This document shows positions 4,888-57,101 of a stretch of 63,877 nucleotides of DNA, piece by piece. The translations under genes and the position numbers were made by a program. The stretch spans positions 1 through 63,877 of the forward strand of contig JAQTVB010000003.1 in assembly GCA_028707005.1 (NCBI GenBank). The letters are read 5' to 3'. This stretch comes from Patescibacteria group bacterium. GTDB taxonomy: Bacteria > Patescibacteriota > Patescibacteriia > Patescibacteriales > GWC2-42-12. The notes below the pieces were generated by a model. The model saw nothing but the letters and a program-made list of their open reading frames with translations, made no database searches and was not told the origin of the DNA. The number at the start of each line of letters is the position of its first letter. Position 1 is the stretch's first letter.

Positions 4888-4916
4888 TTGCTTTTTTTCT
4901 GGTTTCGGAGTAATTT
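4888..4916 (+). promoter_or_regulatory. Cassette promoter module copy A1, TTGCTT-N17-TAATTT
   Basis: About 45 nt (4883-4925) are near-identical to 5746-5790. The -35 and -10 spacing was read directly from the sequence. Confidence 0.5.
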
Positions 4917-5049
4917 AGGCATATCAAAAGGGATTAAACAACCACCCTTAGAAATGGAGGTGCTTACGAACTTTTTAACAATCAGGCGTAGAGGGCTTTT
5001 CGCTTTAAAGCACGAGCAGGTGCCTAGGCTTTTAAAGCTTAAGGAGATC

Positions 5050-5750: not shown

Positions 5751-5779
5751 TTGCTTTTTTTCTAATTTTGGAGTAATTT
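5751..5779 (+). promoter_or_regulatory. Cassette promoter module copy A2, TTGCTT-N17-TAATTT
   Basis: Preceded by a 10-bp hairpin (AAGGCTGATT 5723-5732 / AATCAGCCTT 5743-5752). Near-identical to 4883-4925. Confidence 0.5.
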
Positions 5780-5793
5780 AGGCTTAGAAAACC

Positions 5794-5852
5794 AAGGAGG
5801 CTGGGAGTTAACCCAGAATGTCCTTTAAACAAACAACAGCGGGAGATTAACA
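5794..5852 (+). promoter_or_regulatory. Conserved 5' leader: AAGGAGG + hairpin + CCTTTAAA, ~59 nt before the ATG
   Basis: AAGGAGG at 5794-5800; stem CTGGG / CCCAG (5801-5816); outer GGA / TCC pairing. Same layout as the leaders at 34296 and 55124. Confidence 0.4.
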
Positions 5853-6386: not shown

Positions 6387-6517
6387 TGACAAGAACAATT
6401 GATGGAGGAAAAGTTTATGCTGTCCGGCGGCCAGAGCCATTAAGCCAGGCAATGCCCGGGCGCGCGGAATCAGTTTCCTGATCACATCCGGTCGGCATAT
6501 TGTCGACCGAAACCAAG

Positions 6518-6565
6518 GACGTTTGCTCTAACTTTCAGTTAGGGGTGAGCAAACGTCTTTTTTTT
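6518..6565 (+). terminator. Strong intrinsic terminator closing island A
   Basis: 11-bp stem GACGTTTGCTC (6518-6528) / GAGCAAACGTC (6547-6557) followed by T8. Confidence 0.75.
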
Positions 6566-6600
6566 ACAAAAAAGCCGTAAAATGATAAAGTGTAAATAGT

Positions 6601-7287
6601 ATGAAAAATACCACCTACATTATCTCCATCGGCGGTTCGCTGATTGCGCCTCAAGAGGGCGTGGATTGGCATTTTTTGCAAGAGTTCCGCGCTTTGATTT
6701 TAAAAAAAATCAAGCAGGGGCATAAGTTTTTTTTGATTGCCGGCGGCGGTAAAACCGCCAGGAATTATGTGGCCGCGGCCGAACGGGTGGTGAAAATTGC
6801 AAGTGATGATTTAGACTGGCTAGGCATCCATGCCACCAGATTGAATGCCCACCTGTTGCGCACGATTTTTCGCGATCAGGCCAATCCGGAGATTATTACT
6901 AATCCGACTTTCCGGCTGTTTAGCGACAAGCAGATCATGGTGGCAGCCGGCTGGAAGCCGGGCTGGTCGACCGATTATGTGGCGGCCAGGCTGGCCGAGG
7001 AATATGGCGCAAAAACCATCATCAACCTCTCCAATATTGATTATGTTTATGATAAAGATCCGAATAAGCATCGCGACGCCAAAATAAAAACCAAAATGAA
7101 CTGGCCGGAATTCAGGAAGCTGGTCGGCAATAAGTGGTCGCCCGCGCTTAACGCGCCGTTTGATCCGGTGGCGGCTAAAAAGTCCCAGGAGCTTAAGTTG
7201 GAAGTGGTGATTATGAATGGTAAAAATATCAAGAATTTGCAAAATTATTTGGAGAATAAGAAGTTTATCGGCACAGTGATAAAATGA
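6601..7287 (+). CDS. pyrH: UMP kinase (archaeal/short type, amino-acid-kinase fold)
   Basis: 228 aa with YIISIGGSLIAP...FLIAGGGKTARNYV...AAGWKPGWSTDYVAA, a pattern typical of short-type uridylate kinases. Confidence 0.65.
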   Translation: MKNTTYIISIGGSLIAPQEGVDWHFLQEFRALILKKIKQGHKFFLIAGGGKTARNYVAAAERVVKIASDDLDWLGIHATRLNAHLLRTIFRDQANPEIITNPTFRLFSDKQIMVAAGWKPGWSTDYVAARLAEEYGAKTIINLSNIDYVYDKDPNKHRDAKIKTKMNWPEFRKLVGNKWSPALNAPFDPVAAKKSQELKLEVVIMNGKNIKNLQNYLENKKFIGTVIK

Positions 7288-7351
7288 ATTAACAATTAAA
7301 AATTACGAATTACGAATTACCAATTACCAATTACCAATTACTAATTAATTC
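7288..7351. repeat. AT-rich word-repeat spacer (AATTACGAAT / CCAATTAC words)
   Basis: aattaaaaattacgaattacgaattaccaattaccaattaccaattactaattaatt, read directly. Confidence 0.9.
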
Positions 7352-7364
7352 ATAAATCAAAAAT

Positions 7365-10553: not shown

Positions 10554-10805
10554 ATGAAGAGCGACAGTACGGTGCAAGCGTCAACGAGCCGCGACCTCAA
10601 TGCAATTATTAGTTCGGTGCTGGGCGTTGACCAGAATTCAATTAATCCCGATTTGTCCTTAAGTGAACAATTTGGCGCGACCGAGGCTGACATTAGGGAA
10701 ATTCTGCGGCGGTTAAATTTAACTCCGCAGGAAGGGTCCAAAAGTCTGACGCCAAAAGAAATAAGCCAACAAATGTTGTGGCATTCTGGTCAGCCAACCA
10801 AGTAA
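10554..10805 (+). CDS. Carrier-protein (ACP/PCP)-like small protein B1; Glu at the Ser position
   Basis: LNAIISSVLGVDQNSINPDLSLSEQFGATEADIREILRRL follows the ACP helix I-loop-helix II layout, with GATEAD in place of GxDSLD. SD AGGAGG precedes the start. Confidence 0.5.
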   Translation: MKSDSTVQASTSRDLNAIISSVLGVDQNSINPDLSLSEQFGATEADIREILRRLNLTPQEGSKSLTPKEISQQMLWHSGQPTK

Positions 10806-10835
10806 CGACAAACAATTAAACATTAGGAGAGCAAG

Positions 10836-11111
10836 ATGCAAACAGAACCAACGATTGAACAACGCGCGATCCAAGAGATCGCCGAACACTTCGGCAAACA
10901 TCCGGCCAACATCAAGGCCGAAACTCATTTTCATCGGGATTTGGGGGTCGAAAAGTACTATATTATGACCTTTCTTTACCAGCGCCTGGGAGAGGTGCTG
11001 AACGTAAGAATCAACCCATCGGACGCAAACTTTCAGACGGTTGGCGACGTGCTCGATTATTTAAACCAGCGCGTTGGGCAAGGGGCGTGGGTTCGACAAA
11101 ACAGCGACTAA
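10836..11111 (+). CDS. Carrier-protein-like small protein B2; no Ser at the attachment position
   Basis: IQEIAEHFGKHPANIKAETHFHRDLGVEKYYIMTFLYQRLGEVLNVRINPSDANFQTVGDVLDYL. DLGVEKY replaces DLGxDSL, and the TVGDxxDY helix-IV pattern is ACP-like. Confidence 0.55.
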   Translation: MQTEPTIEQRAIQEIAEHFGKHPANIKAETHFHRDLGVEKYYIMTFLYQRLGEVLNVRINPSDANFQTVGDVLDYLNQRVGQGAWVRQNSD

Positions 11112-11126
11112 CCGGAGGATAGCAAG

Positions 11127-11405
11127 ATGCAAACAGAAGCAACGATTGAAGAGCGCGCGATCGCGACGATCGCCTCATTTTTTTGCAGAAGTCCATACAA
11201 CATCACGGCTAACACTAATTTTAGCCGGGATTTGGGAGTTGAATACCTCCTTGAAATGCTCTGTCTTCGCGAGTGGCTGGAAAGGGAGCTGAACGTAACA
11301 ATTAAACCATCGGACGCAAACTTTCAGACGGTCGGCGACGTTTTGCAGTATTTGCGCACTTGCGCCGGCCCAAAACCGCAAACCCAACAACCAAACGGAG
11401 GATGA
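11127..11405 (+). CDS. Carrier-protein-like small protein B3 (paralog of B2)
   Basis: The first 30 nt and a ~53-nt 3' block (11289-11341 vs 10998-11050) are near-identical to B2. DLGVEYLLE sits at the attachment site. Confidence 0.55.
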   Translation: MQTEATIEERAIATIASFFCRSPYNITANTNFSRDLGVEYLLEMLCLREWLERELNVTIKPSDANFQTVGDVLQYLRTCAGPKPQTQQPNGG

Positions 11406-11406
11406 A

Positions 11407-11673
11407 ATGAGTGAAGCATTGGATGGAATAGTTCGGCGCACGGAGCAACACCAGGTCATGGGAGTGGTTGCTTCAATCATGGACAAAGAAGGTGTTGACC
11501 CTAACACCAGCTTGGCCGCCTTAACACCGAACCAGCGCACCAGACTGGCAAGGGAGCTGGCCGCTAACCAGGGCGTGCCCATTTCTGATGAGGCGGCGCG
11601 GGGTTGGAGCACAGCCGGCGACGCGCTGCGAGCCGTTAGGGAAGCGGCGGAATTGGAGCTGGACGGCGATTAG
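11407..11673 (+). CDS. Carrier-protein-like small protein B4 (most divergent)
   Basis: VMGVVASIMDKEGVDPNTSLAALTPNQRTRLARELAANQGVPISDEAARGWSTAGDALRAV is PCP-like in layout, with Thr at the Ser position. The start lies 1 nt after the B3 stop. Confidence 0.4.
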   Translation: MSEALDGIVRRTEQHQVMGVVASIMDKEGVDPNTSLAALTPNQRTRLARELAANQGVPISDEAARGWSTAGDALRAVREAAELELDGD

Positions 11674-18987: not shown

Positions 18988-19371
18988 ATGCCCCCAAGGA
19001 GGCCAAACAAGCCAACTCTGGTTGACCGCGAAGCGGCTCAAGCCAAAAATCAGCTCATTGCCAAAGTCGGCGTTACCAGTGTCATGATCATCTTTTTTAT
19101 TATCTGGATGTTTGTCCTAAAATATGAATTTTCAGTAAGCACCAGATCAAGCCGAACCAACAGCGGGTTTGATTTAAACCAGGTGAGGAGCGAATTGGAT
19201 AAAACCATGCAGAAAGTGAAAGAAGGCATTGCCGAGATTAAGGCCATACAGCAGAATTCGCAGAGCGCTACTTCATCTCGGGCGGCGGATTTAACGCCCG
19301 AGCAGTTGGATTTGTTAAAAGGCAAGCTGTTGGACGGGATGGCCAGCGGGACGGAGACAATTAACAATTAA
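18988..19371 (+). CDS. Hypothetical membrane protein (one TM)
   Basis: ORF with the TM segment VTSVMIIFFIIWMFVL. No family recognised. Confidence 0.35.
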   Translation: MPPRRPNKPTLVDREAAQAKNQLIAKVGVTSVMIIFFIIWMFVLKYEFSVSTRSSRTNSGFDLNQVRSELDKTMQKVKEGIAEIKAIQQNSQSATSSRAADLTPEQLDLLKGKLLDGMASGTETINN

Positions 19372-19454
19372 AAATTACGAATTACGAATCAAGAATTGAT
19401 TAAGTCATTTCTGCGGCTCCGCCGGTAAACAGAGACGCGGGAATAATCAATATA

Positions 19455-22419: not shown

Positions 22420-22596
22420 ATGTCGATAAAAGTAAACCATGAATTGTGCATCGGCTGCGGCGCTTGCGAAGCCGTCTGTCCGGCAGTTTTTAAAATGAAC
22501 GCCGTGGGCAAGGCCGAGGCCGTAAGCCAGGATGATCCGGGATGCACTAAAGCCGCGGCCGAAAGTTGCCCGGTGCAGGCGATCGAAGCCAATTAA
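22420..22596 (+). CDS. Small 4Fe-4S ferredoxin
   Basis: MSIKVNHELCIGCGACEAVCP...AAESCPVQAI gives CxxCxxC...CP plus a distal CP cluster ligand pattern. Confidence 0.75.
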   Translation: MSIKVNHELCIGCGACEAVCPAVFKMNAVGKAEAVSQDDPGCTKAAAESCPVQAIEAN

Positions 22597-22790
22597 AAAT
22601 TAAAAATTACGAATTGACAATTAAAAACAATCCATTAGTCATGGTGGGTTGTTTTTTGTTGGAAAAAGTGATAGAATAATGCAAAATGTAAATCTCCCGC
22701 CCGCAATGCCTAAGCGTAGCTTTGGCGGGCGCGGCAAAATGCAAAATGACAATGTAAAGTTTAAAATTATTAATTTTACATTAAATTTTT

Positions 22791-27566: not shown

Positions 27567-29279
27567 TTATTTTATTAATTCAACCGCATCACCCTCCTGG
27601 ATCAATTTATTGCCATCGGTGATAATCACCGCGGTGTCAGGCAGATCGACTTTGACTTCCGCCGTCTCGCCGCTGATTTTTATAATTTCCACGGAGATTT
27701 TTTTGGCTTGGCCGTTGTCTATGATGAAAAGACTGTTGCCGTTCTGGCCGATTTCTATGGTTGATAAAGGCAAGATAATATTTTCGGCCGTTGATTTGGT
27801 TTCTGTGGTAATAATAATGTTAACTACCGTGCCCAAAAAGAAGTCGGCGGCCTGGAAATTAATTGGCGCAATTTCCGCTAAAAATCTTTTGGTTAAAGAG
27901 TCGGCTTGAGCCGCTAAGCTGGTAATTTTCCCCGGGATTTCTTTGCCGTCATTATTTATAATGGTGACCGTTTGCTCGGGGCGGAGTTGTTTTAAAACAG
28001 CTTCATCAACATAAACCTGGAATTTGACAGTTTGGCCGGAGCTGATAGTCGCTAGCTGCTGGCCCGCCGATACCGTGTCGCCTCTGGCAATAAAATTTTG
28101 GGTAACTTTTCCGCTGATTGGCGCGATTACTGAATGAGCATCAATAATGCTCTGTAAATTTATCAAGGCATTGCGGTAAGCCAAATCGGCCGCGTCTTGG
28201 CTGGATTTGATGGAGGCTTGTTGGGTGGCGAGAGACTGCAGGGCGTTTTTCGCTTGCTCCTTGGCTAGTTCATAGGCTTTAGTAAGCGCGTCAGCATTGG
28301 TTGTATTATTGATCAAATTATTTTCCAGGGTTTGCTGGGCGCCATTAATCTGCGTCAAAGCGGCGCTAATCTGCGTTTGGTAGCCGGCAACGGTTGTTTG
28401 GTAGCCGCTCAAAACAGTTTGCGTGAACTGGCCGCCGACCAAACTGCTATCCACATAATTTTTAGTTATATTAACCAGCTCATGAGTTTGTTCAGCCAAA
28501 GCAATGGTTTTTTTCACCTTAATTGCAAGGTCAGTCAAATCGCTGGCGTGGTATTGATCATCTAGAGATTGCGTGGCCAGGAAGACGCCTTTGGCGTTAA
28601 TGATTAGTTGGCTGTCAATGACGCCTAAATTATCCTTGTAGGGTGACTCGCCAATGCCGACCGGATCAAAATGGGCGATGCTATTGATGCCTGAAATAAT
28701 TGTGCCGCAGGTATTGGCGACAGAGTCGACGATGGTGTAAGTATTGGTATCAAGGTCCGAATAGGATTGATTGATGCTGGTTTGCCGGTTTTCCAGATTT
28801 AATTTAGCCTGTTCAGCGGCGATTTTGGCCGATTCATAAGCGATCTGCACGCCTTTCAAGCTTTCCGCTGAGGTTAGAGCGACGTTGCGTTTATTAGTTT
28901 CCGCTTGTTCAACTGCCAGTTGGGCCTGCCTGACCTGGTTAGCGTTCAAACCGAAGCTAAAAGTATTGTCGCCCTGGTTGATGTCGTCAATCCTGGCCAG
29001 CAAGCTGCCGGCTTTAACCGTATCGCCCAGCTTATAATTAAGCTGTTTAACCGTGCCGGAGGTTTTAGCGATAATTCTGGCTTCTTGTTCGCTTAAAACC
29101 ATGGTCGGATATTCATATTGCTGGCTGACAGACCGGCTTTGGTCCACGGTTTGTCCCTTAACCTGGAGCGGCGCCTTGGTTTCTGTCGGTGTATTGGCGG
29201 TGTTTTGATTGCAAGCGGTTAAAAACAGCAAGAGCGAGAATAAGGCGACGGCGAGAGAAATTTTCTTGGTTTTAGTCAT
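27567..29279 (-). CDS. Efflux RND periplasmic adaptor (HlyD/MFP family) lipoprotein with an extended coiled-coil hairpin
   Basis: Lipobox LLFLTAC; lipoyl-like motif GTVKQLNYKLGDTVKAGSLLARID / VIAPISGKVTQ; long alpha-hairpin. It lies immediately upstream of the RND gene. Confidence 0.8.
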   Translation of the reverse strand: MTKTKKISLAVALFSLLLFLTACNQNTANTPTETKAPLQVKGQTVDQSRSVSQQYEYPTMVLSEQEARIIAKTSGTVKQLNYKLGDTVKAGSLLARIDDINQGDNTFSFGLNANQVRQAQLAVEQAETNKRNVALTSAESLKGVQIAYESAKIAAEQAKLNLENRQTSINQSYSDLDTNTYTIVDSVANTCGTIISGINSIAHFDPVGIGESPYKDNLGVIDSQLIINAKGVFLATQSLDDQYHASDLTDLAIKVKKTIALAEQTHELVNITKNYVDSSLVGGQFTQTVLSGYQTTVAGYQTQISAALTQINGAQQTLENNLINNTTNADALTKAYELAKEQAKNALQSLATQQASIKSSQDAADLAYRNALINLQSIIDAHSVIAPISGKVTQNFIARGDTVSAGQQLATISSGQTVKFQVYVDEAVLKQLRPEQTVTIINNDGKEIPGKITSLAAQADSLTKRFLAEIAPINFQAADFFLGTVVNIIITTETKSTAENIILPLSTIEIGQNGNSLFIIDNGQAKKISVEIIKISGETAEVKVDLPDTAVIITDGNKLIQEGDAVELIK

Positions 29280-29414: not shown

Positions 29415-29466
29415 ATATTTATGTTTGATACAATATTTATATCTATTACTTCACTAAGGGGGGACG

Positions 29467-29515
29467 CAGGACAGGCCGTGGTATTATTGTTTTAAATGGA
29501 TAACGGCCTGTCCTG
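29467..29515. repeat. 13-bp perfect hairpin upstream of the RAYT-like gene
   Basis: CAGGACAGGCCGT (29467-29479) / ACGGCCTGTCCTG (29503-29515). Confidence 0.85.
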
Positions 29516-29528
29516 GCGTAGTTTATAT

Positions 29529-30080
29529 ATGAGAGTCCGCAAATTAAACCGTCTGCCATTTTTTGATTATGCGCAGAATGGTTTTTATTTTGTAACCATT
29601 TGTGTTAAAGATCGGGAGGAAATTTTCGGGCAGGTGATAAATGAAAAAATGGTTTTAAATAGATGCGGCTGGGTTATTAGAAATCAATGGCAATGGTTGG
29701 CGGGTCGTTTTCCTTATTTAGAATTGGACGAATATATTGTTATGCCCAATCATTTGCATGGAATTCTGATGATTAACACCGATGACGATAACGTAGGGAC
29801 AGTAGGGGCAGGTCGCGACGGGGATAACGTAGGGACAGGTCGCGACCTGTCCCTACAATGCGGGAAAATAAAATCCGTTTCGGAATTAATTGGCGCGTTT
29901 AAAACCACGTCGTCAAAATTGATTCATTATATGGGGTATTCGGATTTCGCCTGGCAACGATCATTTTATGACCATATTATTAGAAATGAAAAATCCCTGA
30001 TTAAAATCAGGGAATATATCATAAATAATCCGGCAAAATGGGAAAGGGATAGAAATAATCCGGCAGATTTATTAATGTAA
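29529..30080 (+). CDS. IS200/IS605-type Y1 (HUH) transposase-like protein, REP-associated tyrosine transposase (RAYT)-like
   Basis: YFVTICVKDRE..., HUH motif MPNHLHGILMI and the C-terminal AWQRSFYDHIIRNE Tyr region. It is a single gene with no IS ends recognised. Confidence 0.7.
   Translation: MRVRKLNRLPFFDYAQNGFYFVTICVKDREEIFGQVINEKMVLNRCGWVIRNQWQWLAGRFPYLELDEYIVMPNHLHGILMINTDDDNVGTVGAGRDGDNVGTGRDLSLQCGKIKSVSELIGAFKTTSSKLIHYMGYSDFAWQRSFYDHIIRNEKSLIKIREYIINNPAKWERDRNNPADLLM
29829..29856. repeat. Perfect 28-nt palindrome inside the RAYT-like CDS
   Basis: GTAGGGACAGGTCGCGACCTGTCCCTAC. It is preceded by a duplicated GATAACGTAGGGACAG (29787-29802 and 29823-29838). Confidence 0.95.
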
Positions 30081-34141: not shown

Positions 34142-34221
34142 ACTTCACCTCGCGGTTTGGCACACCGCGAGTTTTTTTTATCTAAAATTAGGTATTTTTG
34201 CGGCTGATTTTAGGCTAAGCC
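34142..34221 (+). repeat. 80-nt direct repeat, copy C1 (terminator hairpin + promoter-like module)
   Basis: It differs from 34972-35050 by 4 substitutions and 1 indel. It contains the terminator CTCGCGGT / ACCGCGAG + T8 (34149-34179). Confidence 0.9.
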
Positions 34222-34244: not shown

Positions 34245-34273
34245 TTGACTTTTGGTTTTCAGTGAGGTAAATT
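34245..34273 (+). promoter_or_regulatory. Cassette promoter, TTGACT-N17-TAAATT
   Basis: Hexamers at 34245-34250 and 34268-34273. The -10 lies 22 nt before AAGGAGG, the same distance as in island D. Confidence 0.5.
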
Positions 34274-34295: not shown

Positions 34296-34358
34296 AAGGA
34301 GGCCTGGTAGCGCGTGCTACAAGGGCTCTTTTTAAAACTCAACGAAAGAGAACGGAAA
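34296..34358 (+). promoter_or_regulatory. Conserved leader: AAGGAGG embedded in a terminator-like hairpin + CTCTTTTTAAA
   Basis: Stem 34299-34311 / 34316-34328, U-tract 34329-34333, then AAAGAGAACGGAAAATG. It is homologous to 55124-55188. Confidence 0.5.
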
Positions 34359-34901
34359 ATGAACATACCATATTCACATATTATCGCGGTGCCTGCTCGT
34401 CAGGCAACAGTGGATCAACCTCTTATGGCTAAGCTGGCGAAACAAATGCTGTTTTTGAGAAAGCAGAGTTGCTTTTTGGTCGCAATGCCGGAGGGGGAGG
34501 AGCCTGCAGTGACTCAAACCGCCGAGCTTTTGTCCACGGAATTGCAGCGCCTCGAACTTTTAATCAAAAAACAGGATGCCCCATTCAATCCGTCTCCGGC
34601 CAGTTCAACCGTGACTGACGAGAAAACCAAAGCCCTGATCCAGCAAGCGCTTGATCTCTCCGCTCCCGGAGACCAAGCCAAGGCCCTCATTGTCGTGGCA
34701 GACCTTGAATATGCTCAGAAAATGGCTCGGATCATTCTCTGGGACTTTCTAGGCAATCACACAATCCAGAGGCGGCTTGACCAAAGTCTTTCACCTGGTG
34801 AAGCGGTAGTAGTTAATTGCCGGCGTCAAAGCAGAGACACACTTCACCCGGAAGGATACGAGGCCTGGGCAGCCGCGACACTGGCCGCCCCCATTGTTTG
34901 A
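34359..34901 (+). CDS. Hypothetical protein (180 aa from ATG 34359; 195 aa if GTG 34314 is used)
   Basis: The ORF is flanked by the 80-nt direct repeats. No confident family; only a faint histidine-phosphatase-like layout that lacks RHG. Confidence 0.4.
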   Translation: MNIPYSHIIAVPARQATVDQPLMAKLAKQMLFLRKQSCFLVAMPEGEEPAVTQTAELLSTELQRLELLIKKQDAPFNPSPASSTVTDEKTKALIQQALDLSAPGDQAKALIVVADLEYAQKMARIILWDFLGNHTIQRRLDQSLSPGEAVVVNCRRQSRDTLHPEGYEAWAAATLAAPIV

Positions 34902-34971: not shown

Positions 34972-35050
34972 ACTTCACCTCGCGGTTCAGCACACCGCGA
35001 GTTTTTTTATCTAAAATTAGATATTTTTGCGGCTAATTTTAGGCTAAGCC
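34972..35050 (+). repeat. 80-nt direct repeat, copy C2
   Basis: See copy C1. Terminator hairpin at 34979-35008. Confidence 0.9.
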
Positions 35051-35085
35051 TTGACAAGATTATTTAGTTATGATAAGCTGTAAAG

Positions 35086-35258
35086 TTAACTTAAATAATC
35101 CCCCTAGCCCCCTTTATCAAGGGGGTAAAAGGTAAGGCCAATTTAAGCGGGCCAGGCACGACAAGCATGGGGATTTTCTTGTAAGGTATAACATGGTTTC
35201 TAACTGTGTTCTGCCTTGCGGAAATTTTCTTGCCTGCCCGCTTAAGCTGGTCTTTTTT
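35086..35258 (+). ncRNA. Candidate structured small RNA (~170 nt); class unknown
   Basis: There is no ORF. Upstream is TTGACA-N17(TG)-TAAGCT (35051-35079). A ~19-bp closing helix (35138-35158 / 35231-35250) encloses hairpins 35161-35182 and 35183-35217, followed by a U-tract at 35252-35257. Confidence 0.3.
35097..35125 (+). repeat. 30-nt palindromic element, copy 4 (non-coding, inside the candidate RNA)
   Basis: AATCCCCCTAGCCCCCTTTATCAAGGGGG. Confidence 0.9.
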
Positions 35259-35316
35259 ATTTTTTAAAATTAACGAAGAATGGCAGACAGATTAGGAATT
35301 AGGAATTAGAAATTTT

Positions 35317-35349
35317 AAAAACTGCCCTGGCTATGGGGCAGTTTTTTTT
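35317..35349. terminator. Bidirectional terminator (VanW gene / island C)
   Basis: ACTGCCC / GGGCAGT stem with a T8 run on the plus strand and a T5 run on the minus strand. Confidence 0.6.
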
Positions 35350-37236: not shown

Positions 37237-37452
37237 TTACGGTTGGCCAATGATTTCGTTGAGAATCTCTTTGGCCGTTTGCTTATCTTTGATTTCGCGT
37301 TCCCGCTCTTCAAGAATTTCAAAATTCAGAGCAGAGCCCTCGCGTGAATTGGGCGGCAATTGATTTTTCGGCCAAACAATCATTTGACCGTCGCTAGCAA
37401 CTAGGACGGTCTGGCCTCCTTCAAAGCGATCTATGGTAAGTCTTATTATCAT
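37237..37452 (-). CDS. DUF3006-like small protein
   Basis: MIIRLTIDRFEGGQTVLVASDGQMIVWPKNQLP matches the DUF3006 pattern. The gene is translationally adjacent to the VanW gene. Confidence 0.55.
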   Translation of the reverse strand: MIIRLTIDRFEGGQTVLVASDGQMIVWPKNQLPPNSREGSALNFEILEEREREIKDKQTAKEILNEIIGQP

Positions 37453-40770: not shown

Positions 40771-43700
40771 ATGCATCATATGAAAAGTAAGCGAATTTTC
40801 GCCGTTGGTATAATTTTTGTCACCGTTCTGTCAATGAGCGTGGTAACGGCCCCTACGGCCCAAGCCGCCGCTTCAACCGGCGACTTAATTAAAATAGCCG
40901 GGACTTCCTCCGTTTATTATTTGACCAACGGCAAGAGGTATGTTTTTCCCAATGAGCAAATCTATTTTTCCTGGTACTCTGATTTCTCTGGAGTTAAGAC
41001 CATTTCTAAAACGGAATTAGCATCATATCCTTTGGGGGCCAATATTACTATTAGGCCGGGCACTAAGTTGGTCAAAATAACCACTGATCCCAAAGTCTGG
41101 GCGGTTGCTCCCAATGGCGAATTAAAATGGATTTCCAGCGAAGCCACGGCCGCCACTTTGTATGGCGCCGACTGGGCAAAAAGAGTTATCGACATGCCTG
41201 ATAGTTTTATTGGGGATTATAGAGTTAATGGAGTTGCTTATGGGCGAAAAACCGATGCGGATGTTGCTACTTCAAAAGTGACTACCATGGCCTATCCTCA
41301 GGGCAGTTTAGTCAAGTATGCAGGCTCAACCGATATTTATTACATCAATGTTGATGGTTCGGCTTCTAAAATTACCTCTTCTTCAGCTTTCTCGGCCAAT
41401 CGTTTTAAATGGTCTGATGTGGTTACGGCCCAAATTGATAAACCGGCCGAAAGCGCGGCGATTTCTGGGAAAGTGCCGGCTTTGGTGCAAACTTACACCA
41501 ATACCGACCAAGATGATGATATCGTTTCTTCATTAGTAAGTATTGCCATTACCACGCCGGCTACCAAAACGATTTACCAAGTTGGCGACTCATTGTCAGT
41601 GGAAGGGTTGGCAGTGAGCGGCAAATACAGCGACCAGACCACCAAGATTTTACTAATCAGCGCCGCCAACATTACCGGTTTTAACAGTTCGGCGCCGATC
41701 GCCAGCCAAACTCTTACTATTACTTATAGCGGCAAAACAGCGACTTATAAGGTTAAAATAAACGCGGCGTCAGCTTTGTCCAGTATTGCCATTACCACGC
41801 CGGCCACCAAAACGATTTACCAAGTTGGCGACTCATTGTCAGTGGAAGGGTTGGCAGTGAGCGGCAAATACAGCGATCAGACCACTAAGATTTTACCAAT
41901 CAGCGCCGCCAACATTACCGGTTTTGACAGTTCGGCGCCGGACGCCAGCCAAGCTCTTACTATTACCTACGGCGGCAAGACAGCGGCCTATACAATCAAG
42001 ATTAACGCGGCGCCGGTCGTGCCATCATTAAATTCGGCGTCAAATGTTGTTTCGGTTTTTGCGTTTGACGAAGAAGAATACAATAAAATTTCCTTGTCTT
42101 GGCGTGCCGCCAGCTCTAGCGGAGGTTTAATCTTGGGCGGTTATCGGATTTACCGTGATGGGTCTAAAATCTACGATTTGGCCGCGACTGCTAACAGCAT
42201 TATTGATTACGCAAATACTAGTTACGGGTTTAATGCCAATACGCAATATTGCTATGTTGTTGAGGCTCACGATTCAACTAATCAATATTTCGCTTCTAGC
42301 ACGCCTAGTTGTGTAATAACGCCACAAAACTCGCTGGTGCCAACGCCTACCAATGCGGTAGCGACGATGTTCGGGCCAACACAAGTTAAGCTAACTTGGG
42401 ACTCTGGCAGTCAATCAGGCCTTTCTTATGTTGTGCAGAGATTATTTATTTATGGCTGGCGAAACATAGTAAATCCGACGTCTGAAACAGCCCAGTCTTT
42501 TATAGATAGCGATGTTCAAACCGGCAAGACTTATCAATACAGAATTTTTCGTGTTGGAGACTCGGGCGCTTCAGGCTTATCTAATGTTGTGGTTATTACT
42601 GTGCCGTCTGCCGCAGCATTGCCCGGCGCGCCTTTGAATTTTAAAGCGGTTGTATCTGGCCAATCAAGCATGCGTTTGAATTGGGTTGATAACTCCGATA
42701 ACGAGGACGGCTTTAAGGTTGAATCTTTTAATTCGGCCGCCAATTCCTGGCAACTTCTGACTACCCAGACTTCTAATTGGGGCGTTGTTTATCTATCAGG
42801 GTTGCAGCCATCAACTACGTATAGGTTAAGATTATATGCTTATAATGGTTTTGGTTCTTCCTTGGCGGCGGAATTAACCACTGCTACTTTATCTCCACCG
42901 GCCGCTTATTGGACCGCGCCTGATCCAGCCAAGCATCTATTAGTTGTCTATAACTTAGCTTCTCCGGAAAGTGCGGTCATGAAGGATTATTATCTTACTC
43001 ATCGGCCGGGCATTACCTCAGCCAATGTTTTGGGCGTTACTACGGCGACTACCGAAATAATTGACGGGTTAGAATATAAAACTACAATTCAGGATCCGGT
43101 TATCAACTGGCTGCAAAGCCACCCCGACAAGCCTATTAGGTATATCGTCTTAGTGTATGGCATGCCTTCCAGAACTATCGTTCATTTAGAAGCGCCCTAT
43201 TATGGCAGCGGCGGCGTGGGCCAAGCTTTGAGTGAATGTCTATTGACTGCTGGTTTGAAAGAAGGCGCGAAATATCACGCGCCCGAAATAAACGATCACT
43301 ATGCTTCATATCTTGAATATTATCAGCGTTTTACGCCTGAATATTATCAGGGAACAACTGCTTTAGTTACCAGCTTAGATACAGGTTCGGTTGATTCAAC
43401 TAAAGCCTATATTGATAAATTGGCCTCAGTTTACAGTAAGATGGCTCACCCTAACGTAGTTATTTCCGGCCAAGACGCCGGCATCCTAGGATCAACTTAC
43501 TATTTCGATGATGCGCCTAGCGGCGTCACTTGTCCTGGCTCATCATGCGCTAAGCCGGGCCAATGGGCTAAAGACGCGGTTTTGTATGAGAATTCCCAAG
43601 TCTCGGTTGTCAGCGACACGATTAATCATATTGTTGACGCCAGCAATGTTCGGGGTTATCTAAGCTGGGGAGCTAATGGCGGCTTAGGCGCTTATTATCC

Positions 43701-44016
43701 GACTGACGGTACTATAAAATTTCAGGGCAATTCAAGTTGGTATATGATACAAACTAATGAGTCATTTAATGGCCAAAAATACCAAACCGGACAAGGCAAC
43801 TTTGTTAGATGGTTTTCCGCCAATGCCTTTAGCGGCGCTAATTACGCCAATACGCCGGTTATTGCTGTTAGCCATGTTGAAGAACCGGGCGGGATAGGCA
43901 ACACGGAAGTGCTTTTTGGTTTGTGGGAGCGCGGCTATTTATCAGCCGAAGCGGCCTACTTAAGCTACCATCGAGGCTCGGTAATGGTTATTGGCGACCC
44001 CTTAATAACAAAATAG
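40771..44016 (+). CDS. Secreted 1081-aa protein with two Ig-like repeats, FN3-like domains and a large uncharacterised C-terminal domain
   Basis: Signal peptide ...VVTAPTAQAAAS; an 81-aa repeat x2; FN3-like segments (LNFKAVVSGQSSMRLNWVDNSDNEDGFKVE). The C-terminal ~400 aa are unassigned. Confidence 0.7.
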   Translation: MHHMKSKRIFAVGIIFVTVLSMSVVTAPTAQAAASTGDLIKIAGTSSVYYLTNGKRYVFPNEQIYFSWYSDFSGVKTISKTELASYPLGANITIRPGTKLVKITTDPKVWAVAPNGELKWISSEATAATLYGADWAKRVIDMPDSFIGDYRVNGVAYGRKTDADVATSKVTTMAYPQGSLVKYAGSTDIYYINVDGSASKITSSSAFSANRFKWSDVVTAQIDKPAESAAISGKVPALVQTYTNTDQDDDIVSSLVSIAITTPATKTIYQVGDSLSVEGLAVSGKYSDQTTKILLISAANITGFNSSAPIASQTLTITYSGKTATYKVKINAASALSSIAITTPATKTIYQVGDSLSVEGLAVSGKYSDQTTKILPISAANITGFDSSAPDASQALTITYGGKTAAYTIKINAAPVVPSLNSASNVVSVFAFDEEEYNKISLSWRAASSSGGLILGGYRIYRDGSKIYDLAATANSIIDYANTSYGFNANTQYCYVVEAHDSTNQYFASSTPSCVITPQNSLVPTPTNAVATMFGPTQVKLTWDSGSQSGLSYVVQRLFIYGWRNIVNPTSETAQSFIDSDVQTGKTYQYRIFRVGDSGASGLSNVVVITVPSAAALPGAPLNFKAVVSGQSSMRLNWVDNSDNEDGFKVESFNSAANSWQLLTTQTSNWGVVYLSGLQPSTTYRLRLYAYNGFGSSLAAELTTATLSPPAAYWTAPDPAKHLLVVYNLASPESAVMKDYYLTHRPGITSANVLGVTTATTEIIDGLEYKTTIQDPVINWLQSHPDKPIRYIVLVYGMPSRTIVHLEAPYYGSGGVGQALSECLLTAGLKEGAKYHAPEINDHYASYLEYYQRFTPEYYQGTTALVTSLDTGSVDSTKAYIDKLASVYSKMAHPNVVISGQDAGILGSTYYFDDAPSGVTCPGSSCAKPGQWAKDAVLYENSQVSVVSDTINHIVDASNVRGYLSWGANGGLGAYYPTDGTIKFQGNSSWYMIQTNESFNGQKYQTGQGNFVRWFSANAFSGANYANTPVIAVSHVEEPGGIGNTEVLFGLWERGYLSAEAAYLSYHRGSVMVIGDPLITK
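41539..42012 (+). repeat. Tandem 243-nt (81-aa) coding repeat x2
   Basis: Units start at 41539 and 41782 and are near-identical (SIAITTPATKTIYQVGDSLSVEGLAVSGKYSDQTTKIL...). Confidence 0.9.
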
Positions 44017-44324: not shown

Positions 44325-44433
44325 ACACGAAAGAAACGAAGAAAAACACGAATTAGAAAAGACGTTTCACGAAAGGGTGGAACGTCTTTTTAAGATTTTA
44401 TAGAAGATTGAATTATATTAATTATCTAGTAGG

Positions 44434-47429: not shown

Positions 47430-49106
47430 ATGAAAACTAAAGAACCACATAACCGCGCCAGGGCCATTAGCGAACTGCTGGGCGAGGAAATTAATTCGCG
47501 AGCCGGCCTAATGTCCGCTAAAAGAAAACTGGCCAAAAGGTACGGCATAGGCATTTTGGGCAATGCGGAAATTTTACAAGAGTATCAGAGGCGTTTGCTG
47601 GCCAGAGCGGTTAAGCGTTCGCCGGCCTTGGAAAAAACTTTGCGCAAGCGGACTGTTCGCACCATGTCCGGCGTTGCGCCGGTAGCGGTTTTGACCAAGG
47701 CCTATCCTTGTCCAGGCCGCTGCGCTTATTGCCCGACGGAGAAGAACATGCCGCAAAGCTATTTGTCCAACGAGCCGGCGGTCATGCGCGCCGTGCGCTG
47801 TGATTTTAATCCATATTGGCAGGTGCAAGACAGGCTGGCGGCGCTGGAAGCCAACGGCCATAAACCGGAAAAGATTGAATTGATTGTCATCGGCGGAACA
47901 TGGTCGGTGTTGCCCGCGGCTTATAAGTATTGGTATATTTGGCAATGCTTTAAGGCGGCGAACGAATATGGAGGGAAAATCCCAAATTCCAAATCCCAAA
48001 TTCCAAACAAATTCCAAATCCCAAATTCCAAACAAATACAAAATACTAAATACAAAATACAAGAATTTAGGCAAAAATTATTGCGGGAGCAAAAGAAGAA
48101 TGAGTCGGCTAAATATAGAATCATTGGCATCACGCTGGAAACCCGGCCGGACTATATCAATGAAGGCGAGCTGTGGCAGATGCGCGAGCTGGGTTGTACT
48201 CGGGTGGAAATCGGCGTGCAGGCGATTGATGATAAGATTTTAAAGCTGAATCGGCGCGGCCATGGCGTTTTAGCCATCGCGGCGGCGACCAAGATGCTGA
48301 AAGATTACGGTTTCAAAGTCACTTATCATCTGATGCCCGGTTTGCCCGGTTCCAGCGCCAGAAAAGATCTGGCCATGTTTAAAAAATTATTTACTGATCA
48401 GCGCTTTCAGCCGGACCAAATAAAATTTTATCCCACGGTGGTAACGCGCGGCAGTTTGCTGTACCGGTGGTGGCGAGCCGGCAAGTACCGGCCGTATTCG
48501 GACAAGGCGTTGCAGAATTTAATCGTGGAGTGCAAAAAAGCGGTGCCGCCTTACGTACGAATTATCAGGCTGATCCGCGACATTCCCAAGGAGTCAATCG
48601 TAGCCGGAAATAAAATTACCAATTTGCGCCAGATCATGAAAGACCGCGGCGCGGCTTGCCGCTGCATCAGATGCCGGGAAGCGGGAGGAAAACAATTATC
48701 AATTAAAAATTACCTGCCTACCGGACAGGCAGGCGAATTACGAATTATTAAATACCATGCGTCTGATGGCCTGGAGTTTTTTATCCAAGCGACTGATAAA
48801 AGTGGAGGAGTGCTTTATGGGTTTTGCCGGTTAAGATTAATATCTCATAGCTCCATAAAAAATGCCGCTTTGATTCGTGAATTGCATGTCTATGGCGAAT
48901 TAGTGCCGGTGGGCGCAGAGACGCGCCGCGGCGCGTCTGTACAGCACGCTGGCCTGGGAAAAATGTTAATGAAAAAAGCCGAAGCCATCGCCAAAGAGAA
49001 TGGCTATAAAAAAATAGCAGTAATTTCTGGCATAGGCGTGCGCGGCTATTATCGCAAGCTAGGCTATAAGCTGCAGCATAGTTATATGGTGAAAAATTTG
49101 GTATAA
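47430..49106 (+). CDS. elp3: Elp3-type radical SAM + GNAT enzyme (bacterial Elp3 homolog)
   Basis: CPGRCAYCP radical-SAM cluster motif, ...ITLETRPD..., and C-terminal GNAT RELHVYG...QHAGLGKMLMKKAE. It contains three repeat-derived in-frame segments. Confidence 0.8.
   Translation: MKTKEPHNRARAISELLGEEINSRAGLMSAKRKLAKRYGIGILGNAEILQEYQRRLLARAVKRSPALEKTLRKRTVRTMSGVAPVAVLTKAYPCPGRCAYCPTEKNMPQSYLSNEPAVMRAVRCDFNPYWQVQDRLAALEANGHKPEKIELIVIGGTWSVLPAAYKYWYIWQCFKAANEYGGKIPNSKSQIPNKFQIPNSKQIQNTKYKIQEFRQKLLREQKKNESAKYRIIGITLETRPDYINEGELWQMRELGCTRVEIGVQAIDDKILKLNRRGHGVLAIAAATKMLKDYGFKVTYHLMPGLPGSSARKDLAMFKKLFTDQRFQPDQIKFYPTVVTRGSLLYRWWRAGKYRPYSDKALQNLIVECKKAVPPYVRIIRLIRDIPKESIVAGNKITNLRQIMKDRGAACRCIRCREAGGKQLSIKNYLPTGQAGELRIIKYHASDGLEFFIQATDKSGGVLYGFCRLRLISHSSIKNAALIRELHVYGELVPVGAETRRGASVQHAGLGKMLMKKAEAIAKENGYKKIAVISGIGVRGYYRKLGYKLQHSYMVKNLV
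47976..48062. repeat. Word repeat (AAATCCCAAATTCCAAA...) in frame within Elp3
   Basis: It encodes KIPNSKSQIPNKFQIPNSKQIQNTKYKIQ. The word family is the same as in spacers 10271-10403 and 62690-62835. Confidence 0.85.
48693..48752. repeat. Complete word-hairpin-word spacer module in frame within Elp3
   Basis: caattatcaattaaaaattac + CCTGCCTACCGGACAGGCAGG + cgaattacgaatt. The first 21 nt are identical to the tRNA spacer at 56905-56925. Confidence 0.9.
48917..48938. repeat. Terminator-type hairpin in frame within Elp3
   Basis: The 22-mer AGAGACGCGCCGCGGCGCGTCT is identical to 24095-24116 in the uvrC/RND terminator. It encodes ETRRGAS. Confidence 0.9.
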
Positions 49107-55072: not shown

Positions 55073-55101
55073 TTGACTTTTTATCTCAAATTAGGTAATT
55101 T
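55073..55101 (+). promoter_or_regulatory. Cassette promoter, TTGACT-N17-TAATTT (island D)
   Basis: The spacer TTTTATCTCAAATTAGG is near-identical to TTTTATCTAAAATTAGG in the C1/C2 repeats. Confidence 0.5.
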
Positions 55102-55122
55102 GAAAGCAGATTCAATAAAATT

Positions 55123-55185
55123 AAAGGAGGTCTCGGCATAACGCCGCGGAGCTCTTTTTAAATCCAAAAGAGAAAGGAAAATTAT
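55123..55185 (+). promoter_or_regulatory. Conserved leader: AAGGAGG embedded in a terminator-like hairpin + CTCTTTTTAAA (island D)
   Basis: Stem 55127-55137 / 55143-55154, U-tract 55155-55159, then AAAGAGAAAGGAAAATTATATG. Confidence 0.5.
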
Positions 55186-55554
55186 ATGGGATATTGGGAT
55201 GCAACAGATGAGTTTTTAAGAGAACATAGCGGCCACGGACCGACTTGCCCCAACTGTGGGAAAGCAATGTTTCCTGAAGACGACCATGGTCGTTTTGTTT
55301 GTTCCTGCAAACTGGGTGGCAGTTTTGATGTAGTAAGTGGCGAGCCAACGCAAGCGTCGAAAATCCCGCAGGTGGATACAGATGGCATGTCGGACGCGGA
55401 AAAGGCCCAAATTCCGCTGATCAACCGGCTTGAATCTGAACCGACAGCAGCCGAGGCCAAGATTCTTTTAATGCTTCTTCGCGGCCCGGAGGTCATGGAT
55501 GACCCTGAATACTTAAAGGCTCGCCAGGCCCTGAAGAGGGAAAGGGGAGAATAG
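55186..55554 (+). CDS. Small Zn-ribbon protein (122 aa), hypothetical (island D)
   Basis: CPNCGKAMFPEDDHGRFVCSC gives CxxC...CxC. The C-terminus is helical. Confidence 0.45.
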   Translation: MGYWDATDEFLREHSGHGPTCPNCGKAMFPEDDHGRFVCSCKLGGSFDVVSGEPTQASKIPQVDTDGMSDAEKAQIPLINRLESEPTAAEAKILLMLLRGPEVMDDPEYLKARQALKRERGE

Positions 55555-56827: not shown

Positions 56828-56902
56828 GCTCCTGTGGTGAAATGGATATCATATTTGGCTTCGGACCAAAAGTTCCGGGTTCGAATCCTGGCGGGAGCAC
56901 CA
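56828..56902 (+). tRNA. tRNA-Arg (anticodon TCG), CCA encoded
   Basis: A hand-folded cloverleaf: acceptor GCTCCTG / CGGGAGC, anticodon loop CTTCGGA, T-arm CCGGG-TTCGAAT-CCTGG, 3' ACCA. Confidence 0.8.
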
Positions 56903-56946
56903 AACAATTATCAATTAAAAATTACGAATTACGAATGTAATTTTTT

Positions 56947-57021
56947 GGCTGGGTAGCTCAGTTTGGTCAGAGCGTGGCATTCATAACGCCGAGGTCGAGA
57001 GTTCGATTCTCTCCCCAGCCA
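56947..57021 (+). tRNA. tRNA with CAT anticodon (elongator Met or Ile2; not initiator-like)
   Basis: Acceptor GGCTGGG / CCCAGCC (G1-C72), anticodon loop TTCATAA, T-arm GAGAG-TTCGATT-CTCTC. No CCA is encoded. Confidence 0.8.
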
Positions 57022-57101
57022 CTATATCAATTACGAATTAAAAATTAAAAATTATAAATTCCTTAATTCGTAATTGCTAATTGATAATTTTTAATTGACT
57101 T

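Follow-up and report, generated by a model that had tools for sequence, protein, structure and literature searches.

In one contig of an uncultured Patescibacteria bacterium, three unrelated genes are preceded by what their sequences indicate are copies of a single promoter-plus-leader unit, those of islands C and D being close relatives and that of island A2 a diverged one. The unit appears to be specific to this lineage. We read it, at a probability of roughly 40% and thus tentatively, as a reused regulatory cassette of the lineage in which a leader hairpin with a buried SD-like motif, AAGGAGG, would most likely limit or condition the expression of the downstream ORF in cis. In the Patescibacteria (CPR) genomes are small and regulators that can be recognised are scarce, and promoters, leaders and post-transcriptional control are hardly known; the reused unit supplies a defined promoter and leader of this lineage that can be put to the test.

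The window, that is, the whole stretch of DNA analysed, is the 63,877-nt contig JAQTVB010000003.1 (assembly GCA_028707005.1, source sample SRR22315508), and coordinates are those of its forward strand (Table 1). The host genome consists mostly of SD-less genes, an SD being present in just 8 of the 52 genes of the window (~15%). With a GC content of 0.52-0.54, where the mean is 0.47 (sd 0.05), the island genes stand apart only mildly in composition, and their GC3 is unremarkable. Pfam and defence-system annotation gave no match for the island proteins. In an Rfam 15 scan of the whole window only three tRNAs reached the gathering threshold, and no 16S gene was found.

Table 1. Positions of the leader units, their genes and neighbouring features in the window
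Feature	Position	Strand	Details
A1 promoter copy only	4888..4916	+	A1 gene 4954-5649
A2 predicted promoter	5751..5779	+	TTGCTT, N17, TAATTT; nearly identical to the A1 promoter
A2 leader hairpin	5794..5825	+	AAGGA pairs with UCCUU 5821-5825; inner stem CUGGG/CCCAG; AAGGAGG 5794-5800
Left ~80-bp direct repeat of island C	34142..34221	+	Terminator hairpin CTCGCGG..CCGCGAG, T8 run, TTTATCTAAAATTAGGTATTTT...GGCTAAGCC; repeat family D11
C predicted promoter	34245..34273	+	TTGACT 34245-50, N17, TAAATT 34268-73; 9/12 in consensus scan
C leader hairpin	34296..34331	+	AAGGAG pairs with CUCUUU 34326-34331; AAGGAGG 34296-302
C purine box AAAGAGAACGGAAA	34345..34358	+	AAAGAG 34345-34350, alternative partner of CUCUUU
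Gene C, orphan ORF	34359..34901	+	Start uncertain
Right direct repeat of island C	34972..35050	+	49-nt core 35002-35050, 96% identical to left copy
D predicted sigma-70-type promoter	55073..55101	+	TTGACT 55073-78, N17, TAATTT 55096-101; putatively active
D leader hairpin	55123..55158	+	AAAGGAG (AAGGAGG 55124-55130) pairs with CUCUUUU 55152-55158
D T5 run 55155-59, then AAA (TTTTTAAA)	55155..55162	+	4/5 U inside stem
D purine box AAAAGAGAAAGGAAAATTAT	55166..55185	+	AAAAGAG 55166-55172 can pair with CUCUUUU
Gene D	55186..55554	+	122 aa; Zn-ribbon-like CPxCG...DDHGRFxCxC motif; no Pfam family

The leaders of C, D, A2 and A1 were compared by global alignment against 500 shuffles. C and D are similar from the -35 box through to the ATG (z=11.1), and the likeness ends at precisely these two limits; A2 is a weaker relative of both (z=5.6 with D, 3.9 with C). 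The proteins of the four genes are mutually unrelated, no match being found in an all-against-all BLASTP. Similar upstream regions before non-homologous genes of one genome, the pattern that defines promoter reuse, are thus present according to the z values and the BLASTP result. The original prediction of a homologous promoter-plus-leader module is borne out clearly for C and D and more weakly for A2; the strings that it quoted are all in the DNA, and its coordinates, rechecked for D, C and A2, are nearly all exact. An extended promoter pattern occurs at six sites in the window against 0.9 expected.

Within the C-D alignment, identical blocks (TTGACTTTT, AGGTAA, AAGGAGG, GCTCTTTTTAAA, AAAGAGAA and GGAAAAT) alternate with a promoter spacer, a 22-nt segment and a hairpin interior that are near random in identity, and this mosaic fits selection on the blocks. 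AAGGAGG starts 22 nt past the TAATTT of D and the TAAATT of C, and from its start to that of the ATG there are 62 nt in D, 63 nt in C and 59 nt in A2.

A1 had been counted as a fourth member of the family, and this did not hold. Its similarity to A2 (z=7.0) is limited to the promoter, and it shows no significant likeness to C (z 1.5) or D (z 1.9). What had been taken for its leader, ATGGAGG...CTTTTTAA, is codons 1-9 of a 231-aa protein whose start codon is ATG 4954: homologues align from their residues 2-8 to query residues 5-8, and the Logan gene call is of the same length. A start at ATG 5050, which would make the stretch a leader, was rejected because the alignments with homologues take in the 32 residues that lie before it.

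Folding places AAGGAGG in a hairpin in C, D and A2, as had been proposed, and the motif is fully paired in both the MFE and the centroid structures. The proposed pairing of GAG with the CTC before the U-tract is present but belongs to a larger helix, in which the whole AAGGAG pairs with CUCUUU (AAGGA with UCCUU in A2), so that part of the U-run lies inside the stem. C and D have a common layout (a base of 6-7 bp, a G.G mismatch, 3 bp, a bulge and 4-5 bp). The inner stems of the three copies differ in sequence and keep the same arrangement, with UCU/GGA and CGGC/GCCG in D (loop AUAAC; arms 55127-37/55143-54) and CCU/AGG and GUAGC/GCUAC in C (loop GCGU; arms 34299-311/34316-328). The MFE is -17.5 kcal/mol in D (z -3.76) and -19.5 kcal/mol in C (z -3.75), none of 200 shuffles being as good in either case, and -13.2 kcal/mol in A2 (z -1.2). 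The T5 run of C (34329-34333) has three of its five U inside the stem and is followed by AAAA; past the A2 stem there are three U only. The hairpin lies between the predicted promoter, whose start site is putative and which in D matches only 8 of 12 consensus positions and hence was absent from the list of a simple consensus scan, and the ATG.

The description of this hairpin as terminator-like can be kept in part. On a d'Aubenton-Carafa-type score it is borderline in C (+2.0) and D (-3.0) and fails in A2 (-37.7). The window's strong gene-end terminators range from +23 to +62 and its weaker but plausible ones from +0.8 to +18, and C and D stand at the low edge of the genome's gene-end terminators (e.g. 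+7.6, +3.1 and +0.8 for T5-type tails). Since A2 has three U and d=-38, termination cannot be the function common to all copies.

Only when AAGGAGG was constrained to be unpaired did the pyrimidine strand pair with the purines before the gene, as CUCUUUU:AAAAGAG in D (7 bp), CUCUUU:AAAGAG in C and UCCU:GGGA in A2; under this constraint the best fold of the whole leader weakened to -12.2 kcal/mol in D (from -19.6) and to -12.9 kcal/mol in C (from -20.7). The alternative helix is short and AU-rich, and its formation is to some extent automatic, since a pyrimidine run complementary to an SD-like motif also matches a purine-rich RBS.

As to promoter activity, the transcription start, termination, switching and the factor that would drive it, we infer the following course. 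The unit, of ~115 nt, would have its exact limits at a sigma-70-type -35 box and the start codon, and its transcript is predicted to start ~15 nt 5' of AAGGAGG. The nascent RNA would fold at once, AAGGAG acting as a decoy SD and not as a working RBS and pairing with CUCUUU, and in C and D, where five U come after the stem, the hairpin would act as an intrinsic terminator, though a weak and leaky one. As long as the pyrimidine strand, which all three copies have, lay on the decoy, the real RBS would be open; if the decoy were occupied or removed, that strand would pair with the RBS purines and close the RBS. Attenuation in C and D is plausible on this model. If the hairpin is a conditional terminator, the leader would count as a minimal attenuator lacking any known sensor, and if it is not, the unit is still a tidy case of promoter and leader reuse.

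Promoter-proximal attenuators built on intrinsic terminators (riboswitch, T-box, leader-peptide and protein-mediated) likewise have a hairpin and U-run between promoter, here a predicted one, and ATG, and an alternative pairing through the 3' strand of the hairpin. Unlike them, the present leaders contain no recognisable aptamer, leader peptide or protein-binding element; they are ~80 nt long, their U-runs are of five (C, D) or three (A2) residues and partly in the stem, and their scores are borderline. A search for a sensor gave neither an upstream ORF with ATG, GTG or TTG shared by the leaders, a canonical leader ORF being absent, nor an Rfam aptamer; the leaders may still hold a binding site for a protein or for 30S subunits. 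In the three-element SD/anti-SD/anti-anti-SD switches, too, the middle one of three segments (purine, pyrimidine, purine) pairs with either the first (1:2) or the third (2:3), the third overlapping the RBS; here, however, the 1:2 helix greatly exceeds the alternative in stability and would be the first to form, there is no known trigger and the complementarity is partly automatic.

Flavobacterium johnsoniae ribosomes lacking bS21 read one strong SD (PMC9976891, PMC13000453). By analogy, the buried AAGGAGG could be a co-transcriptional sensor of 30S subunits with a free anti-SD tail, to which we give little credence. The decoy would be captured before the 3' strand was made, no hairpin would form and CUCUUU would pass to the RBS purines; if true, transcription and translation of accessory island genes would be coupled to the state of the ribosome without a leader peptide.

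The 5' hairpins of the ompA and T7 gene 10 leaders are the comparison for a different explanation, namely that the hairpin is a constitutive 5' stem-loop which stabilises or insulates the mRNA with no regulated termination, holding CUCUUU and thereby keeping a weak RBS accessible, the SD-like motif possibly giving STAB-SD-type protection. This we regard as doubtful. In its favour, the hairpin with its AAGGA:UCCUU pairing is kept in A2 without a U-tract, the U-runs of D and C are largely in the stem and followed by A residues, and the region from hairpin to ATG is A/G-rich and unstructured in the folds. SD-like stabilisers remote from the start codon are moreover known, as in the cry3Aa leader of Bacillus thuringiensis, where the STAB-SD is a remote SD-like motif of the 5' UTR (Agaisse and Lereclus 1996, in the account given by PMC12970973), and in the ribosome-dependent protection of B. 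subtilis hbs mRNA (PMC5737220). The leaders here share with these a strong 5' UTR motif which lies far from the start (59-63 nt) and does not direct initiation; unlike the STAB-SD, it is paired in a hairpin of -17 to -19 kcal/mol, in a genome that is mostly SD-less, and would be poorly available to 30S subunits. The predicted hairpin is also ~15 nt from the 5' end and not terminal, and stability alone does not explain why GCUCUUUUUAAA is conserved exactly in C and D. The module may be an example of a strong SD-like motif neutralised or exploited in an SD-poor genome.

Orthologues served for comparison. Some 30 homologues of the D protein were found; the proteins of genes C and A2 had no homologue among 5.8 billion proteins. 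Most of the 48 orthologue loci fetched have an AGGAGG-type motif at a distance of 4-9 nt from the ATG and ~20 nt past a conserved upstream motif, the latter being also the spacing of promoter and AAGGAGG in the window. In the present genome, then, the motif has moved ~55 nt away from the start. None of the 48 loci has the leader hairpin. AAGGAGG might accordingly be no more than the ancestral SD of gene D, pushed away by a ~55-nt insertion, the unit having then reached C and A2 as a copy through recombination or duplication and the hairpin being a captured terminator-like sequence of little function. The resemblance of AAGGAGGTCTCGGCAT of D to AAGGAGGTGTCGCATG in two orthologue loci (L004 and L022) agrees with this, as do the insertion or duplication signs at island C; we nevertheless hold it to be unlikely, because the blocks that are 100% identical between C and D amid saturated sequence argue for continuing selection and the inner stems are still paired despite complete sequence turnover. 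The equation of GCTCTTTTTAAA of the window with GCTCTTTAAAAC, which stands before the conserved motif of the orthologues, is uncertain, the distance to the ATG being 35 against ~70 nt and the alignment ambiguous.

Ordinary gene-end terminators of bidirectional style (A-run, stem, U-run) offer another account, in which the promoters would partly be T-rich terminator tails and D would be transcribed together with recQ by read-through. Between recQ and the D hairpin there is indeed no strong terminator (best d=-8.9, in a hairpin that ends in the T-run of the D -35 box), so the D hairpin could end the recQ transcript. A covariance model, R1, built from the three leaders C, D and A2 found its own training sequences in the window (A2 at E=7e-16, though A2 was in the training set) and, after them, genuine terminators of like style (AAGGACG..CGUCUUUUUUUU at 6509-6590; AAAAGACG..CGUCUUUUUAAG at 44352-44417); a viral-contig pattern scan gave two chance matches only, one of which (AAGGAGGGCG..CGCTCTTTTTAAAA) is a plain terminator in a phage contig. 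C and A2, however, each have a separate terminator of their own upstream, with no ORF between it and the hairpin, so that these hairpins are not mere ends of a previous gene. The homology, moreover, runs through the RBS to the ATG and the order of promoter then hairpin is kept in 3/3 copies, which makes this account quite improbable.

It is very unlikely that AAGGAGG is a working RBS, either of an N-extended gene C or of a tiny leader peptide controlling the hairpin. In D the motif is followed by no ATG, GTG or TTG, and the frame is closed by an in-frame TAA which, as predicted, bars upstream extension of the ORF, although it lies at 55159-55161 and not at 55158-55160; the start of gene D is set at MGYWD by the orthologues. 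The AAGGA 8 nt 5' of this ATG in the purine box, which MAFFT aligned opposite the AAAGGAGGTG SD of the orthologues, is likely the working, if weak, SD. In A2 the ATG (5853) follows the motif by 59 nt, no start codon is suitably placed, and the gene has an SD of its own, GGGAG (5841-5845), the alternative partner of UCCU. Only in C could the motif serve an extended ORF, through GTG 34314 (195 aa), which is in frame, 11 nt past AAGGAGG and the choice of the Logan gene caller; the other candidate starts are ATG 34359 (180 aa) and GTG 34410 (163 aa), the latter being that of the window's own gene call. An AUA codon at the equivalent loop position of D opens a frame of seven further codons that stops inside TTTTTAAA, but an open frame of 15 codons is expected by chance about half the time, and the C-D indels in this stretch are not multiples of three. 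Least probable of all is a ~50-nt small RNA made of promoter, hairpin and U-run, the standard layout of an sRNA gene, with the downstream ORFs reached by read-through only: conservation continues for 27-30 nt to the ATG, no second promoter serves the ORFs, the U-tract is missing in A2 and no Rfam family matches.

Further copies and covariation were also sought. In 210 kb of DNA from other Patescibacteria loci the R1 model gave no convincing hit. Over the nine alignable pairs of the three sequences, 92% of the cells are paired and one pair shows a two-sided change, but 320 of 500 shuffles equal this, so that the covariation is not significant. Judged by the refuting conditions set in the original prediction, its attenuator is a candidate and not a confirmed one. 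Among the Rfam 15 families none matched the leaders better than E=0.4, all being far below their gathering scores (DUF805 RNA, 17.6 bits with a threshold of 51.1; RefA9, 18 with a threshold of 49), and blastn against phage records gave chance matches of 26-28 nt only. A preQ1-I-like appearance of the A2 hairpin with its A-rich tail was dropped for want of Rfam support. An AAGGAGG with a hairpin at 37421 of the minus strand, apparently a fifth copy, was rejected because it lies within a DUF3006 ORF whose Pfam match begins at residue 6.

Putative mobile promoters, that is, highly similar 5' regulatory regions before non-homologous genes of one genome, have been described (PMC3575422), and the present unit resembles them in having its boundaries at the promoter and the start codon. 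It differs in its structured leader and in that the island C copy is flanked by 80-bp direct repeats. Homologues of D and the 22-mer described below are absent from viral contigs.

Phage morons are self-contained units of promoter, gene and terminator. Island C is similarly a discrete unit of ~830 bp between two host genes, with its own promoter, orphan ORF and terminator, but no prophage context was found for it. A search for strain variants with an empty island C site returned contigs of the same sample only. Island C shows signs of insertion or duplication, and the module may serve as a marker of recently inserted or rewired accessory genes such as this one. The cassette family of the original prediction, from which A1 drops out, is strengthened by the direct repeats of island C and by the recurrence of a 22-mer in the D promoter, of which bases 55080-55101 (TTTATCTCAAATTAGGTAATTT) are common with these repeats. 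The 22-mer (TTTATCTMAAATTAGGTAWTTT) occurs three times against 0.02 expected, inside the C repeats and as the spacer and -10 box of D.

The original prediction had placed a shared promoter-plus-leader module before four island genes of the window, A1, A2, C and D, and its leader strings for D, C and A2 were present, by sequence check, where it had put them; the in-frame TAA that it noted in D exists as well, one nucleotide away at 55159-55161. In global alignments scored against 500 shuffles the leaders resemble one another beyond chance (C-D, z = 11.1; A2-D, z = 5.6; A2-C, z = 3.9), and the extended promoter pattern occurs 6 times against 0.9 expected. The similarity between C and D starts at the -35 box, stops at the ATG and is mosaic: TTGACTTTT, AGGTAA, AAGGAGG, GCTCTTTTTAAA, AAAGAGAA and GGAAAAT are identical blocks, and the sequence is near-random in the spacer of the promoter, in the 22-nt segment and inside the hairpin. 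The proteins of A1, A2, C and D are mutually unrelated, and none of the four has a Pfam family. A homologous promoter-plus-leader unit before unrelated genes is upheld by the z-scores for C, D and, more weakly, A2.

The membership of A1 was not borne out. Its 231-aa frame from ATG 4954 has homologues across its N-terminus: a search of 1.8 billion representative proteins gave 37, whose residue 2-8 is aligned to query residue 5-8, and L8 and E31, conserved in the multiple alignment, both lie upstream of the internal Met originally taken as the start. Because the homologue alignment and the Logan gene call both give 231 aa, 'ATGGAGG...CTTTTTAA' constitutes codons 1-9. In the global alignments against shuffles the upstream regions of A1 and A2 are similar (z = 7.0) and those of A1-C and A1-D not significantly so; A1 and its neighbour A2 have only the promoter in common, apparently through a local duplication. 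A1 (4954-5649) is one of a family of proteins 230-250 aa long; the family consensus includes an EDxCTxGTG motif, presumably phosphoribosyltransferase-like from its appearance and degenerate in A1 (GDYCDRAS); no Pfam model matched A1.

Coordinates of the leader elements and of repeated features; L numbers are loci of D homologues in other Patescibacteria
Feature	Position	Elements
D promoter	55073	TTGACT, 17 nt, TAATTT, then 22 nt to AAGGAGG
D AAGGAGG	55124-55130	
D stem arms	55127-37 + 55143-54	then T5 and AAA
D start codon	55186	ATG
C leader	AAGGAGG 34296-34302; ATG 34359	element order of D
A2 leader	AAGGAGG 5794; ATG 5853	TTGCTT-N17-TAATTT, AAGGAGG, CTGGG/CCCAG, CCTTTAAAC
Island C direct repeats	34142-34221; 34972-35050	
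7-nt tandem-unit regions (examples)	7265-7359; 19344-19410; 22576-22642; 47951-48084; 56898-57080	
AAAACAAATACTTTTAGGAAG copies (first/second)	L003 2943/3438; L004 2945/3425; L021 2410/2890; L013 2937/3295; L026 25/503; L011 2956/3299; L033 1949/2454; L046 -/3248	
CCCCCTTTATCAAGGGGG element copies	7785; 19578; 31182; 32019; 35093	

The pairing of GAG with CTC first described in the hairpin is present and extends further, the whole AAGGAG pairing with CUCUUU on RNA folding; the base helix is AAAGGAG:CUCUUUU in D and AAGGA:UCCUU in A2. C and D are alike in layout above the base (G.G mismatch, 3 bp, bulge, 4-5 bp and a 4-5-nt loop), and the inner stems of D (UCU/GGA and CGGC/GCCG), C (CCU/AGG and GUAGC/GCUAC) and A2 (CUGGG/CCCAG) have no sequence kinship. 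The folding energies are -17.5 kcal/mol in D and -19.5 kcal/mol in C (both z about -3.8, 0 of 200 shuffles as good) and -13.2 kcal/mol in A2 (z -1.2). Over nine alignable pairs 92% of cells pair, with one pair changed on both sides; as 320 of 500 shuffles of these three sequences do as well, there is no covariation beyond shuffles, and the case for a conserved structure comes from the independent inner stems rather than from statistics.

All gene ends of the window, along with the leader hairpins, were given a d'Aubenton-Carafa-type score. Strong terminators at gene ends reached +23 to +62 and weaker plausible ones, several with T5AA-type tails, +0.8 to +18. The terminator-like character first proposed is borderline in C (+2.0) and D (-3.0), which are predicted to be of weak-terminator grade, and absent in A2 (-37.7), which scores as no terminator; if so, termination cannot be a property common to all three copies. 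What D, C and A2 do have in common is a three-element arrangement, a pyrimidine strand with two purine partners. When AAGGAGG was held unpaired in constrained folding, this strand paired instead with purines of the genuine ribosome-binding region: D forms CUCUUUU:AAAAGAG, C forms CUCUUU:AAAGAG and A2, with its true SD, UCCU:GGGA. Such complementarity is partly a matter of course, since both partners are rich in purines.

The firm finding is that unrelated accessory genes are preceded by paralogous copies of a promoter-plus-leader unit, in whose conserved hairpin a non-initiating SD-like motif is buried. It is a real, lineage-specific, putatively regulatory module and falls in no described family, the nearest known concepts being promoter reuse (PMC3575422), STAB-SD (PMC12970973, PMC5737220) and terminator-based attenuators. 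The preferred reading, to which a probability of roughly 0.4 is given, is control of downstream expression in cis: the C and D hairpins would cause leaky termination ahead of the ORF, and in D, C and A2 the pyrimidine strand would switch between the decoy SD and the real RBS. A constitutive stem-loop with a stabilising or insulating role is a somewhat unlikely alternative.

Proteins identical to those of the window occur only in contigs of sample SRR22315508, and C and A2 encode orphan proteins. The D family comprises small proteins that carry a Zn-ribbon-like motif; it occurs across Patescibacteria, is absent from viral contigs and is set in differing neighbourhoods (beside ribosomal protein S9 and an ECF sigma factor; beside PilM; between a tyrosine integrase and peptide deformylase). 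The leader hairpin is present in 0 of the 48 fetched loci of D homologues; most of them carry an AGGAGG-type SD 4-9 nt before the ATG, and in about 12 the SD follows a conserved upstream motif by ~20 nt. Since in the window D keeps the promoter distance of its SD-like motif, has ~55 extra nt before the ATG and has lost the native upstream motif, replacement of its regulatory region by a reused module would fit. That the AAGGAGG so placed is the relic of an ancestral SD is unlikely.

In other Patescibacteria a 21-nt motif, AAAACAAATACTTTTAGGAAG, stands in inverted copies on either side of the D-homologue gene; its conservation exceeds that of the protein (50-66% aa identity). The first copy lies ~45 nt before the ATG, and the second, on the opposite strand ~70 nt past the stop, runs into a GGGAAGG..CCTTCCC hairpin. 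Neither the window nor the viral contigs contain the motif; the pair may mark convergent sense/antisense promoters or operator sites.

Island C, flanked by ~80-bp direct repeats whose 49-nt core is 96% identical, has the look of a ~830-bp unit that was inserted or duplicated; each repeat joins a terminator hairpin and a T-run to TTTATCTAAAATTAGGTATTTT...GGCTAAGCC. The 22-mer TTTATCTMAAATTAGGTAWTTT occurs 3 times in the window (0.02 expected): both repeats contain it, and it forms the spacer and -10 box of the D promoter. The A1 and A2 promoters are its more diverged relatives. The promoter-like element stands at the left end of C as well as of D, in either case immediately following a hairpin and T-run. 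The covariance model trained on D, C and A2 found its three sources at E<1e-15, and its next matches in the window were ordinary A-run/stem/U-run terminators (6509-6590 and 44352-44417). It is quite improbable that the hairpins are ordinary terminators with fortuitous promoter-like tails. Further copies in relatives did not appear, as the model had no convincing hit in 210 kb from other Patescibacteria loci; no Rfam family matches the leader, and pattern and BLAST searches of viral/phage collections gave chance matches only, one an ordinary terminator.

AAGGAGG is not an RBS in D, where no ATG, GTG or TTG follows it, the frame is closed and 30 homologues agree on MGYWD as the start, nor in A2, where it lies 59 nt from the ATG and the gene's own GGGAG is 8 nt before it. 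In C such a role is possible only via GTG 34314, 11 nt downstream in the hairpin loop, which one gene caller picked; a second begins C at 34410, and the C-D alignment has frame-breaking indels in this stretch. A real RBS or a leader peptide is very improbable. Sensing of 30S subunits by the buried AAGGAGG, as first proposed, would have a parallel in the SD-blind ribosomes of Bacteroidia (PMC7797042, PMC9976891, PMC13000453) and is very doubtful; that promoter and hairpin make up a small RNA gene is the least credible reading of a unit whose similarity runs on to the ATG.

An SD-like motif stands 7-20 nt ahead of the start in only 8 of 52 window genes, so the strong AAGGAGG motifs stand out; upstream regions of most genes are AT-rich and packed with 7-nt tandem repeats. 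Most intergenic regions consist of such units, e.g. AATTACG, AATTAAA, AATTACC and CCAAATT. The SD-bearing genes are clustered (4954-5649, 7386, 10554-11673 and 32919) and include two small tandem paralogues, 10825-11353, 74% identical over 238 nt.

The ~300 bp past the right island C repeat (35051-35347) have no plus-strand ORF and open with TTGACA and a TATGAT-like box; they may be a small RNA gene or a remnant of the original downstream promoter. They include one of five window copies of a 33-nt element ending in the small palindrome CCCCCTTTATCAAGGGGG; several others lie within long ORFs, and the element could be REP-like or a recurrent peptide motif. On the minus strand, at 29387-29277, the HlyD-like gene 27567-29279 has a promoter of the same family as the leader promoters, TTGACTTTTAAATGACTTTTTGTTAAACT, followed by an SD-like GAGGG forming the 5' strand of a 12-bp hairpin that closes on CUUUU 12 nt before the AUG (-14 kcal/mol, z -2.9), a theme like that of C and D without sequence homology in the leader. 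The plus-strand ORF 29496-30080 (194 aa, borderline Pfam Y1_Tnp match, IS200-like transposase) has its start codon in the loop of a stem at 29464-29519, ACGCAGGACAGGCCGU:ACGGCCUGUCCUGGCGU (-34 kcal/mol, z -5.8), with a AAGGGGGG motif 37 nt upstream; this is reminiscent of IS200, which has an RBS-occluding stem-loop. Finally, a 243-nt tandem repeat (91% identical) lies at 41539-42012 within the 1081-aa ORF 40771-44016.
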